UHGV virus genome: UHGV-0322540
Origin: a virus
Length of the DNA stretch: 12,346 bases
Reading direction: 5' to 3' (one strand)
The notes beneath the pieces were generated by a model, which made no database searches, had not been told where the DNA came from, and saw only the letters and a program-made list of their open reading frames with translations. A program made the position numbers and the translations under genes. This document shows, piece by piece, positions 588 through 12,346 of this stretch. Position 1 is the first letter of the stretch; each line of letters begins with the position of its first letter.

Positions 588-4268
<3,681 letters not shown>

Positions 4269-5436: not shown

Positions 5437-5492
5437 AGCAATTTAGATAATCGTGCAGACTACGCCCCTCATATCACATGGAAGGTACTACA

Positions 5493-5903
5493 ATGGCTCA
5501 GGTTGCCATTTTTAAACAAATATTCGATAAAGTGCGAAATAATTTAAACTATCACTGGTTTTATTCTGAACTAAAACGTCACAATGTCTCACATTACATT
5601 TACTATTTAGCCACAGAGAATATTCATCTTGTTCTTGAAAACGATAATACGGTTTTAATAAAAGGACAGGGTAAGGTTGTAAATGTAAGATTTTCAAAAA
5701 ATAAATGCCTTATAGAAGCCACCTTAAAAGGATTCAAATCAGGAGAGTTATCATTTTACGAATACAGAAAAAATCTTGCTACAGCAGGGGTTTTCAGATG
5801 GATTACAAATATCCACGAAAACAAAAGGTATTACTATACCTTTGATAATTCATTACTCTTTACTGAGAACATTCAGAACACTACACAAATATTTCCGCAC
5901 TAA
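5493..5903 (+). CDS. DUF1398-like protein (YbcV/YdfO-like), function unknown
   Basis: ORF track gives 5478..5903, but the second ATG at 5493 has a GGAAGG Shine-Dalgarno about 9 nt upstream, giving 136 aa ([42 protein letters not shown]...). Strongly AT-rich compared with neighbours. Resemblance to YbcV/YdfO is from memory only. Confidence 0.62.
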
Positions 5904-6252: not shown

Positions 6253-6774
6253 TCAGCACGCGATATCGAGAGTCAACTGCAGTTGCTCGCGCCAGTACTC
6301 AACATTTGCTTCAATAACCGGCTTATCCCATCGCCAGCGAGCCATCTCTCTTGCCCCATTGCTGGCTTTTGATTTCCGGTCATCGCGAATGCGACATGCT
6401 TGCTCATATTTCTGCTGCTCAGTCAGTTCACCGCGAAGCAGACTATCAATGTGCAGGTCGCACCACACAGCAAAACGAGCATCACACCAACGGGCAAATG
6501 CAACTGAAAGTTTTGGATGTAGCCACGTACCACCACCCCTGTCCTTTCGTGCCTTGCTGGTTTTTACATACCTCGATTGTGAGGGATGTAAAATTTGAGA
6601 TTCTTTCCCGGTCAACGCTTCGTCTAAAGCACGAACGTATTCAAGCGTTTCTGCCAAACGCATCCAGTTATCAATGCGTTTCCCAAATCTCTCAGCAACA
6701 CCTGTGACGTTGATCCAACCATCAGTGTTGAAACTGACAATTTCACCTTTGTAATTAAGTGGCACGATATTCAT
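6253..6774 (-). CDS. KilA-N domain (APSES-type DNA-binding) protein
   Basis: 173-aa ORF MNIVPLNYKGEIVSFNTDGWINVTGVAERFGKRIDNWMRLAETLEYVRALDE...GGGTWLHPKLSVAFARWCDARFAVWCD..., showing the characteristic KilA-N core (tW.hP.La..FA.W). AGGTAA Shine-Dalgarno-like sequence about 7 nt upstream. Same strand as, and downstream of, the lysis genes. Confidence 0.68.
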   Translation of the reverse strand: MNIVPLNYKGEIVSFNTDGWINVTGVAERFGKRIDNWMRLAETLEYVRALDEALTGKESQILHPSQSRYVKTSKARKDRGGGTWLHPKLSVAFARWCDARFAVWCDLHIDSLLRGELTEQQKYEQACRIRDDRKSKASNGAREMARWRWDKPVIEANVEYWREQLQLTLDIAC

Positions 6775-10056: not shown

Positions 10057-10240
10057 CTCTTTCACTCCATCCGCGATGAACCATGAGAACGTCGTTGACG
10101 ATGGCGTGCATTTTCCCGTCTTTATCATCAACGTATTTTCTGACCGTGCCGCGACTACATTTCAGTCTGCGTGCTACTTCTGTCTGGTTTCCGTATGCTT
10201 CAACGAGCATGTCTGGAATGGTTTTTACTGAGAACGTCAT
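10034..10240 (-). CDS. ninH: NinH
   Basis: 68-aa [61 protein letters not shown]..., recognised as lambda NinH (same length, helix-turn-helix-like). Confidence 0.88.
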
Positions 10241-10848
10241 GCGGCCTCACTTCTGCTATTTCGCAGGTCTTTGAGTTTCTGTTGGTACTCTGCCTTGATC
10301 GCCTTGCACTCTTCGATAGTCCAGCGATGGCGGTTATGGTTTGATTCGATTTCGTCTACTGCTTCCTGCCCGATGCGGCTAATCAGTTCGACGCGATACG
10401 GAACGAGATTTCCGCTTTTGTGCTGGTTGCACACCACGCATTGCTTGTGAATATTGCGTTCATCAAATCGGAGTTGAGGTGCCGCAGCAGTTGTCCGGTA
10501 ATGTCCGGCATCCCACTGAGCAGACGTGAGCGTTCCGCACGAGATACATGGTAAGTCGCGGTCTCTTTCTCTGATGAAGGCGTTTACGGCTTGTTGGGCT
10601 TGTTTAATCCAGTAACTGCGGGGCTTTAAGGCGAGTTTTCGAATCTTAAGTTTATCTTTCTGTTTCTGCTCCTCTCGTCGTCGTTTCTTTTCTGCTGCTT
10701 TTTCCGCTTTTTCGCGTTCTTTGCTTCGTCGTTCGAGTGCTATCTTGGTTCCACACTCTGGAGAGCACCACCACTGATTAGCGAATGCAGGGTGAAACCA
10801 TTCCCGGCATTCATCGTTTTTACATCGTCTTCGCGCTGGTTTAGCCAT
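10237..10848 (-). CDS. ninG: NinG (Rap, recombination-associated structure-specific endonuclease family)
   Basis: 203-aa [61 protein letters not shown]..., recognised as lambda NinG/Rap with multiple Cys clusters. Confidence 0.9.
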
Positions 10849-11117
10849 TATGGTTCGCTCCAGTAATTCTCAATTGCAGCAGCCATTCTCTGCATCCACT
10901 CAGCCAGCTTTAACGCGGCTTCTCTTTCAGAACCACATTTAGGGAAATCCTTCATTTCCATGCTGGCCTTATATGTTCTGAATGCCAGGTCTCCGGTAAT
11001 AACCAACTCCTGATCAAGCACCGAGCGTTTATTCCGATGTTGAACGTAATAGACAGATTCAGTCCGCATTTCTTCTCTGTCTTTTTTGAAGGAAATAAGC
11101 TCAGAGAAATCACTCAT
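10848..11117 (-). CDS. Hypothetical 89-aa protein, no family recognised
   Basis: [92 protein letters not shown]. Its stop overlaps the ninG start (TAATG), and its ATG overlaps the ninF end (ATGAGTGA), so it fits operon-style translational coupling. Lambda has no gene at this position as far as I recall. Confidence 0.55.
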
Positions 11118-11286
11118 CGTCTTCTTCCTCGTACATTGAGCTATTCGGATCGCTCATCAGTTCTGCGCAGCAGTGCTCACACACGTGAACTTCCAGCACA
11201 TGCAGCTTCTGACCGCAGTTAGCGCACGTTAAAGCTCGCTCGACGCTTTCTTTCTGGTATTGAAGGGATTGGGATGGGCTAAGCAT
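11110..11286 (-). CDS. ninF: NinF (small Cys-rich protein)
   Basis: Not in the ORF track (under 60 aa). My manual minus-strand translation from the ATG at 11286 gives [58 protein letters not shown] (58 aa), matching lambda NinF as recalled. TAATG overlap with the upstream orf. Confidence 0.82.
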   Translation of the reverse strand: MLSPSQSLQYQKESVERALTCANCGQKLHVLEVHVCEHCCAELMSDPNSSMYEEEDDE

Positions 11287-11651
11287 TATTGGATTCTCTG
11301 CATCATGAGAAAGACAATCATGGCGGCGCGAAGGGGATTTTTATGTATAGCTCGCTTAGATTTACAGTAGGCCACACCACGTGCACCCCACTCGTCTTCA
11401 TCGAGATTGATAATGCTAATCCTGTATTTTTCAATAATCGGCCATGAGTCTGCTGGGTTTGCGCATGGGTTAAAGGATCCGCGCTCAACTTCTACTTCAA
11501 CTGCGTCTCCGTTTACAATGTCTCCCTCAAATGAGACAAACACCATATCGCCATTCTCACCTTCTTTGTAATCCGGTGATCCGTTATGAATGGCTTCGAA
11601 TACCGCCACGTTAATTTCAAAATCACTTAACTGTGAATAATCCATTGTCAT
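11286..11651 (-). CDS. Hypothetical protein, NinX-like by position (between ninE and ninF)
   Basis: ORF track gives 11286..11687, but the ATG at 11651 forms an ATGA overlap with the ninE stop, giving about 121 aa ([58 protein letters not shown]...), acidic. Lambda lacks a gene here; P22-type nin regions carry ninX at this position. Assignment is positional only. Confidence 0.55.
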
Positions 11652-11824
11652 TTCCTCGCACGATGTCTTAGCCACCGGATATCCCACAGGTGAGCCGTGT
11701 AGTTGAAGGTTTTTACGTCAGATTCTTTTGGGATTGGCTTGCGTTTATTTCTGGAGCGTTTCGTTGGAAGGTATTTGCAGTTTTCGCAGATGATGTCGGT
11801 GATACTTCGTCGCTGTCGTCTCAT
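11648..11824 (-). CDS. ninE: NinE
   Basis: ORF track extends to 11914, but the internal Met at 11824, preceded by an AGGAGG Shine-Dalgarno, gives [58 protein letters not shown] (58 aa), matching lambda NinE as recalled. ATGA overlap with the upstream methyltransferase stop. Confidence 0.82.
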
Positions 11825-12346
11825 GCCGCCCTCCTGACGCCCTGCCCGATCGCCATCAATGCCGCTTTGGATACGGTAGTAAACATCCGTCGAGGACTGA
11901 TGAACGGTCGCCAAATCAGCAGCATGGAACCTTTGCTGTTTCCCTTCTTCTCCAGCCCCGTCGATGGTTCGATAAAATTAATCCGTCCATCAGTGATAAT
12001 GCGAACTTCGTCAACGCTCTCCAGAGCCTTGCTGAACCAGCCGACAGACATATCTTCTGGCACAAGCATCACTACCGCCTGTCGCTGTTGTATGCACTGC
12101 TCAGCGGCTTTTTCCACCCACGGTCTGATATTGCTGTACGGTGGGTTATTCCAGATTGCACCGTGGCTTATCCACTCAGAATTTAGCGCGTCGTCGGCCT
12201 CAGTCAGCCAGTGAGCACACAGAGCATTTTTGTCGCTCGCTGCCGAATCCAGCCAGAATCCAAACTCAATATCCAGTGCATCAAAAAGCCAAAGCGGCGT
12301 TTGCCAGCAGTCCTTGTCGTGTGCTGGCGTATTTGATTTGATAGTC
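11821..12346 (-). CDS. Phage Dam-family DNA N6-adenine methyltransferase, C-terminal part (N-terminus beyond the right edge)
   Basis: My manual minus-strand translation is open from the right edge to the stop at 11821: ...[71 protein letters not shown]...[12 protein letters not shown]... It contains the NPPY catalytic motif (12147-12136) and the upstream LD.AAS motif typical of phage Dam methyltransferases. The ORF-track entry 11821..12117 is only its tail. Confidence 0.8.

Follow-up and report, generated by a model that had tools for sequence, protein, structure and literature searches.

The 89-codon reading frame (ORF89) that lies between ninF and ninG in the prophage DNA analysed here (the window, i.e. 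the whole stretch of 12,346 nucleotides from virus genome UHGV-0322540) is a genuine protein-coding gene. In a lambda-like prophage, it forms part of the pR (nin) operon, which is delayed-early, with translational coupling to both flanking genes (ninF upstream, ninG downstream), and it constitutes an independently mobile cassette made of one gene. It encodes a single-domain protein that is soluble and mildly acidic and that is already catalogued, being annotated in phage mEp235 and belonging to PHROG 1258 and to the family of N15 gp44. As to what it does, we tentatively propose that it binds stoichiometrically to a protein of the host or of the phage, anti-defence and host takeover being plausible forms of such a role.

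Read on the minus strand, the window spans the late-to-early junction of a lambda-like prophage, with the genes in the order Dam, ninE, ninX, ninF, ORF89, ninG, ninH, ninI phosphatase and Q. The relevant features are collected in table 1; ninH is in turn matched by the Pfam family NinH. The other genes of the window are those for the portal protein, terminase, Nu1, Rz, lysozyme and holin, and a DUF1398 and a KilA-N gene. The stretch that holds the latter two is another mosaic accessory spot, and its KilA-N gene occupies the position that Bor has in lambda. At the other end, the window begins 2 nt past the ATG of the Dam gene, which is intact; a 98-aa GTG-start ORF (11821-12117) in the ORF list was set aside as an artefact of the window end, the Dam frame being open to the edge.

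Table 1. Features of the window in and around the ninF-ORF89-ninG region.
Feature	Position	Strand	Remarks
ORF89 CDS	10848..11117	minus	ATG start, 89 aa, C-terminal end ...IENYWSEP
Overlap of the ORF89 start codon with the last codons and TGA stop of ninF	11110..11117	minus	8 nt, ATGAGTGA
TAATG, ORF89 stop and ninG start	10846..10850	minus	one base in common
Shine-Dalgarno-like GAGGA	11126..11130	minus	8 nt upstream of the ORF89 ATG, read from the sequence
Shine-Dalgarno-like GGAG	10858..10861	minus	in the last ORF89 codons (..TGG AGC..), 9 nt upstream of the ninG ATG
269-nt segment absent from otherwise collinear ninF-ninG loci	10849..11117	minus	from alignment; spans of 2078 versus 2347 bp
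ninF	11110..11286	minus	58 aa, zinc-ribbon-like; Pfam NinF, E 1.8e-12
ninG/rap	10237..10848	minus	203 aa; Pfam NinG, E 4e-92
ninX	11286-11687	minus	Pfam match NinX
DUF1398 (YbcV-like) gene	5478-5903	plus	between the lysis cassette and cos/Nu1
KilA-N gene	6253-6774	minus	between the lysis cassette and cos/Nu1
Dam methyltransferase	11821-12346	minus	frame open up to the window edge

A sequence-only reading of the window had pointed to an extra ORF of 89 codons fitted between ninF and ninG, with stop and start codons overlapping on both sides, and had taken it for a translated member of the operon. All of this is borne out, on the minus strand. The frame of ninF ends in ...GAC GAT GAG TGA and the ATG of ORF89 stands at 11117-11115; at its other end ORF89 reads ...GAA CCA TAA TGG CT, the final A of its stop codon being the A of the ninG ATG (10848), so that the overlaps amount to 8 nt with ninF and 1 nt with ninG. 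Both starts are preceded by Shine-Dalgarno-like sites. The GAGGA of ORF89 is placed within the acidic tail of ninF, and in loci that lack ORF89 the same GAGGA stands before the ninG start. The GGAG is embedded in the conserved C-terminal ..YWSEP codons of ORF89 and, as it precedes the next ATG by 9 nt, the cassette brings along a Shine-Dalgarno-like site for whichever gene comes next. Between 10200 and 11800, no sigma-70-like promoter was found on either strand and no intrinsic terminator on the minus strand, and no Rfam family is matched anywhere in the window. Thus, having neither a promoter nor a terminator of its own, ORF89 is to be regarded as a delayed-early operon member rather than as a moron. 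It resembles the named nin genes of lambda and P22 (ninA-H, ninX, ninY, ninZ), which share the same operon and the same overlapping-codon packing, and whose dispensability, like that of ORF89, is deduced from patchy presence; however, ORF89 is not homologous to any of the named nin genes (there is no match to a Pfam Nin family), is absent from lambda and falls outside the named set of P22.

That ORF89 is translated and maintained is evident from its relatives. The protein is 100% identical to annotated coding sequences in phages mEp235 (mEp235_051), ECP1 and phiv205-1, and 98-99% identical to its counterparts in vB_EcoP-611R6 and in Salmonella P22-like phages such as SPN9CC; the exact protein sequence is found on at least 1000 contigs. 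The dN/dS ratio is 0 against mEp235 and 0.16 against SPN9CC, while for the homologues of Yokenella, Serratia and Yersinia (61-71% amino acid identity) dS is saturated and amino acid identity exceeds nucleotide identity. The notion that ORF89 is spurious, or a decaying and functionless frame, could draw on the few variants with a frameshift or a truncation that draft and metagenome data contain (P0021, P0010, P0019 and others). It is nonetheless hardly credible in view of the purifying selection, of a motif that is kept across relatives at 30-100% identity, of a very confident predicted fold, and of the 148 E. coli copies, all but one of which (147) align over 80% or more of the gene with at least 97.8% nucleotide identity; on the conservation data, the spurious-ORF reading is already effectively refuted. 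As to the variants, the 88-aa P0021 begins in an alternative-frame ORF of 53 aa (10952-11113, minus strand) and then shifts to the ORF89 frame: it is a frameshifted copy from a short-read assembly, reflecting either a sequencing error or a rare pseudogene.

The gene is also precisely delimited as a unit of presence and absence. When the window is aligned with lambda and with an E. coli prophage (23CRST042) that is otherwise 98-99% identical to it, the extra 269 nt correspond exactly to ORF89 from its ATG to the TA of its stop codon, i.e. to one gene. In lambda and in many E. coli prophages, ninF is joined straight to ninG, as the sequence-only reading had stated for lambda; these loci read ...GAAGAAGACG up to the junction and ATGGCTAAA... 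from there on, and the ninF stop and the ninG start overlap there by 8 nt. Of 5426 complete E. coli genomes, 148 (about 3%) contain ORF89, at 155 places, all with at least 97.8% nucleotide identity, and 1694 contain ninF-like DNA, at 2117 places, the cassette being carried by about 7% of the E. coli ninF loci. Absence from close relatives, or a frameshift in them, had been named beforehand as a finding that would speak against ORF89. Absence is indeed the rule, at about 93% of the ninF loci, but it is gene-precise and the gene is intact where it is present; such a clean absence of one gene is how an accessory gene behaves and, therefore, is no argument against ORF89 being a gene.

In all the E. 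coli and Salmonella loci listed or inspected, ninF lies upstream of ORF89. What follows varies: in the full-length E. coli records listed, ORF89 is followed by ninG or by a DUF1364/HNH gene and then by rusA, and in mEp235 and SPN9CC the order is ninF, ORF89, the DUF1364/HNH gene and rusA. The ninG gene and the unrelated DUF1364 gene share the opening ATGGCTAA (window 10846-10853; mEp235, L001, 3270-3277; L007 1342-1349), and the cassette itself opens with ATGAGTGA at the same position relative to ninF (window 11110-11117). It is because of such short sequences, common to the module boundaries, that the two junctions of the 269-nt indel both fall exactly at an ATG. Mosaic joints at gene boundaries are a known pattern of lambdoid nin regions, and the ORF89 junctions fit it. 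The clean indel, along with the lack of a flanking promoter, terminator or Rfam element, makes ORF89 a mobile, gene-precise module of the delayed-early operon, and we infer that it encodes a dispensable, accessory protein of lytic growth.

A single extra gene, present or absent among collinear relatives, also describes the phage morons, and the presence/absence polymorphism of ORF89 among prophages could be read as that of a gene for lysogenic conversion or superinfection exclusion, expressed from the prophage to the benefit of the host. Classic morons, however, come with a promoter and a terminator of their own and are expressed in the prophage state, whereas ORF89 has neither element near it on the strand that encodes it, is coupled in translation to the adjacent genes, and lies on the same strand as these genes, overlapping them, inside the repressed pR operon. 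A promoter-like sequence was annotated at the 3′ end of the gene by the depositors of mEp235, but it would drive the downstream gene and not ORF89. Furthermore, the protein has no PADLOC match, and its sequence shows no evident signal peptide or membrane segment. A moron-type function is, on balance, very improbable.

The family to which ORF89 belongs is well delimited but poor in names. The PHROG 1258 profile is matched with an E value of 4.7e-38, residues 2-89 aligning with positions 9-97 of 97, and a PHROGs scan of ORF89 and 54 family members returned phrog_1258 and, more weakly, phrog_30735 (E 3e-4), both of unknown function. ORF89 is identical to mEp235 gp51 (AFM76269.1; phage record JQ182731.1). 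Relatives at 30-45% identity comprise N15 gp44, phiKO2 gp43 and HK225 gp58 (E 2e-9 to 5e-15 by tblastn), the proteins of the P1-like RCS47 (gp052) and SJ46, and the product of a Proteus phage gene. The profile match extends over the full length, the members from N15, phiKO2, HK225 and the P1-like phages are 35-44% identical to ORF89, and the PHROG 1258 members share with ORF89 a location in early accessory regions of temperate phages and an annotation as hypothetical. All names on family members are either ‘hypothetical protein’ or ‘putative Gp44’, the former being also the PGAP name of WP_001279421.1 in the 97.9%-identical MB19 locus. Nor did the literature, searched by locus tag, accession, phage name and nin-region terms, yield any study of the ORF89 protein.

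The family is confined to Enterobacterales, where its members sit in temperate phages, in prophages and in phage-plasmids. A scan with one genome per species found it only in Enterobacterales prophages (of Yokenella, Serratia, Yersinia, Photorhabdus, Xenorhabdus, Citrobacter, Brenneria and others), to which a profile search added Providencia, Proteus and Morganella. Homologues are present in 369 plasmid records, of which 345 are non-mobilizable and nine conjugative; judged by mobility and by size, which fits P1-like elements (about 90-120 kb) and N15-like ones (about 50-60 kb), most of the records are phage-plasmids. The family is small, since of 1.8 billion cluster representatives searched exhaustively by HMM, only 67 scored E ≤ 1e-3. 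Two contigs labelled as Bacillota and Collinsella MAGs (L009 and L010; JAEZIN010000021.1 and JAIHTM010000136.1) hold a 100% identical ORF89 among nin genes of the E. coli type, and an assembly of the alphaproteobacterium Limoniibacter (L025) holds a homologue with 40% identity; all three cases probably reflect enterobacterial prophage DNA that entered as a contaminant in binning or assembly.

The sequence-only reading had recognized no motif in the protein, and had allowed for a match to a characterized family with a mundane function. The first statement holds across Pfam, NCBIfam, PADLOC and the PDB, and as to the second, the profile and sequence searches led only to PHROG 1258 and, more weakly, to phrog_30735, neither of which has a known function. 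In Pfam, no family matches ORF89 at E ≤ 1, while its neighbours match NinF, NinG, NinH and NinX. No model of Pfam, NCBIfam or PADLOC hits ORF89 or recurs among the 54 diverse members, and the PADLOC defence-protein HMMs give no match to ORF89 even at E ≤ 10. Two stray hits, to NF008256 (E 0.016, one of 54 members) and to Cmr5 (E 0.004, four of 54), were judged to be due to chance. No PDB sequence is matched by ORF89 or by the family profile, and a profile search of a set of 5.8 billion sequences returned just ‘hypothetical protein’ names and no Pfam domain.

Conservation and prediction agree on a compact protein. The AlphaFold2 model built on a 54-sequence alignment (pLDDT 95.5, pTM 0.80) has predicted strands at residues 2-13, 18-28, 33-43 and 48-54 and a helix at 64-87, i.e. 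an antiparallel beta-meander of four strands that wraps around a C-terminal helix of 24 residues; an earlier model, from a 12-sequence alignment, had the same predicted topology with a pLDDT of 79.6. The most conserved parts are the beta2-beta3 hairpin (V-x-H-x-N..T-T-L-E-Q), with the conserved residues H27, N29, T32 and Q36, a D-F-P loop, and the helix (S..EAALKLA[D/E]W..R...AI), one face of which carries the conserved K70, W74 and R77. Across the 54 diverse members, conservation reaches 90% or more at each of the residues Q36, F58, K70, L71, W74 and R77. The median pI of the family is 5.8 and its median net charge -2, with eight of the 54 members being basic.

The fold comparisons were made with the earlier model (pLDDT 79.6). 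With this model, the best match of Foldseek in the PDB had an E value of 0.2, and in BFVD the sole significant match was a viral protein of 92 aa (30% identity, TM 0.73, E 4e-6), which is most likely itself a member of the ORF89 family. A curved antiparallel sheet on a long helix, as predicted for ORF89, is found in the NTF2-like and cystatin-like cone folds and in the PC4, Whirly and PUR units, and the beta-beta-beta-beta-alpha order of the PC4 and PUR units is that of ORF89; in the comparisons with the pLDDT 79.6 model, no significant score was obtained for the same topology as the NTF2-like or cystatin-like fold, and no significant superposition with PC4, Whirly or PUR.

Small size, the lack of a signal from any catalytic family, a non-basic composition and a conservation that is localized on the surface are the reasons for favouring, tentatively, a stoichiometric binder. 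The dispensable protein would be made in lytic growth and would bind its partner, a host or phage protein, through the conserved surface formed by loop and helix, an enzyme or a general nucleic-acid binder being less likely roles. Three points weigh against such a binder: the conserved polar residues H27, N29, T32, Q36, K70 and R77 might just as well make up a small site for catalysis or for binding a ligand; a delayed-early product comes late if restriction is to be countered as the DNA enters; and the fold searches used the pLDDT 79.6 model, so that a characterized structural relative could have been missed. More ambitiously, the family as a whole, with the N15 gp44, P1-like and P22-like homologues, might represent new counter-defence or host-manipulation proteins on a compact beta4-alpha scaffold for which the searches with the pLDDT 79.6 model gave no solved relative, and which would address a host target found throughout Enterobacterales with the D-F-P loop and the helix; this extension is doubtful at present.

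The narrower alternative that ORF89 is an anti-defence protein proper, which would inhibit, or serve as a decoy for, a host immune system whose trigger comes after early gene expression, must be considered unlikely, with points on either side. Circumstantially, it would suit a small, dispensable cassette that is patchy in its occurrence and has spread among unrelated temperate phages and phage-plasmids, and a compact fold for which the searches with the pLDDT 79.6 model found no solved relative, all of them traits that many counter-defence genes display. In size, accessory status and horizontal spread, ORF89 is indeed comparable to Ral, Ocr, the anti-CRISPRs and the Tad and Gad proteins. However, no similarity to these was detected and ORF89 is delayed-early, not immediate, its expression being late as N antitermination is needed. 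More generally, no solved anti-defence protein resembles it in sequence or, as judged with the pLDDT 79.6 model, in structure; there is neither enrichment on conjugative plasmids (9 of 369) nor a link to plasmid leading regions; and known anti-defence genes are not adjacent in the loci examined. To our knowledge, no function has been assigned to most of the small genes of the nin and ea type, which keeps the prior for anti-defence modest, and ORF89 is typical of the many small nin-region genes whose role is unknown. The suggestion of anti-defence or host takeover made in the sequence-only reading was derived solely from position and size; the analysis turned up nothing to speak for it or against it, and anti-defence is not lifted beyond a reasonable prior.

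The main rival of the binder is an accessory role in DNA metabolism, by which ORF89 would bind single-stranded or branched DNA, or modulate NinG/Rap, RusA, NinB/Orf or the phage Dam methyltransferase. Its grounds are the neighbourhood and the beta4-alpha order, and it too is to be held rather unlikely. In E. coli and Salmonella, ORF89 is always directly upstream of a junction-resolvase module, be it ninG or DUF1364 and rusA, and relatives adjoin ninG, rusA or ninB-like genes in Yokenella, Yersinia, Symbiopectobacterium and HK225. A DNA methyltransferase gene precedes three relatives, and the Dam gene of the window lies three genes upstream of ORF89. As for structure, the beta4-alpha order is that of the PC4, Whirly and PUR ssDNA-binding units, and the weak matches of the pLDDT 79.6 model include Pur-alpha and a Whirly protein. 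The clustering of ORFs from 33 loci revealed no conserved partner gene beside the ORF89 homologues. Their typical neighbours are replication genes upstream and ninB, ninG, rusA and Q downstream, in early-right or early-left regions, others being Ead/Ea22-like, HK225 gp57-like and N15 gp43-like genes. The remaining probability lies with functions other than those named here.

Whatever the function, ORF89 is a well-defined and tractable candidate for functional screening, being a real gene with a confident predicted fold. Its carriers are easy to manipulate, as the gene is present in mEp235 and the ninF-ninG junction of lambda is a naturally vacant site for it, and a phenotype, if found, would annotate thousands of database entries at once.

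Some further features of the loci of relatives can be recorded. The homologue follows directly on a DNA methyltransferase gene in three distant loci, namely phiKO2 (gp42-gp43), a Logan contig (L005) and a Citrobacter locus (L019), with stop and start codons that overlap or nearly abut (2282-3255 in the phiKO2 locus L041, 5476-6297 in L005 and 4095-5255 in L019); as an association, three of 33 loci are not convincing. A gene for a DnaQ/Rv2179c-like 3′-5′ exonuclease is found a few genes upstream of the homologue in N15 (L002, 1438-2352) and phiKO2 (L041, 1213-1821), and at 1-492, about 5.5 kb upstream of the homologue, in the Logan contig L005. An apparent fusion of an exonuclease fragment with an ORF89-like domain (P0043) is probably a deletion artefact, and fusions with Ead/Ea22 look like deletions or gene-calling read-through from neighbouring genes. 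Nothing was matched by the extensions of P0044, P0070, P0083 and P0086. In the last of these, which is metagenomic, residues 1-95 belong to a small protein family with the pattern ..VVE.DWPEYE.VW.. and are fused upstream of the ORF89-like domain; in a Serratia prophage (L012, 5273-5521), this small family, which has no Pfam match, is encoded directly after the ORF89 homologue.
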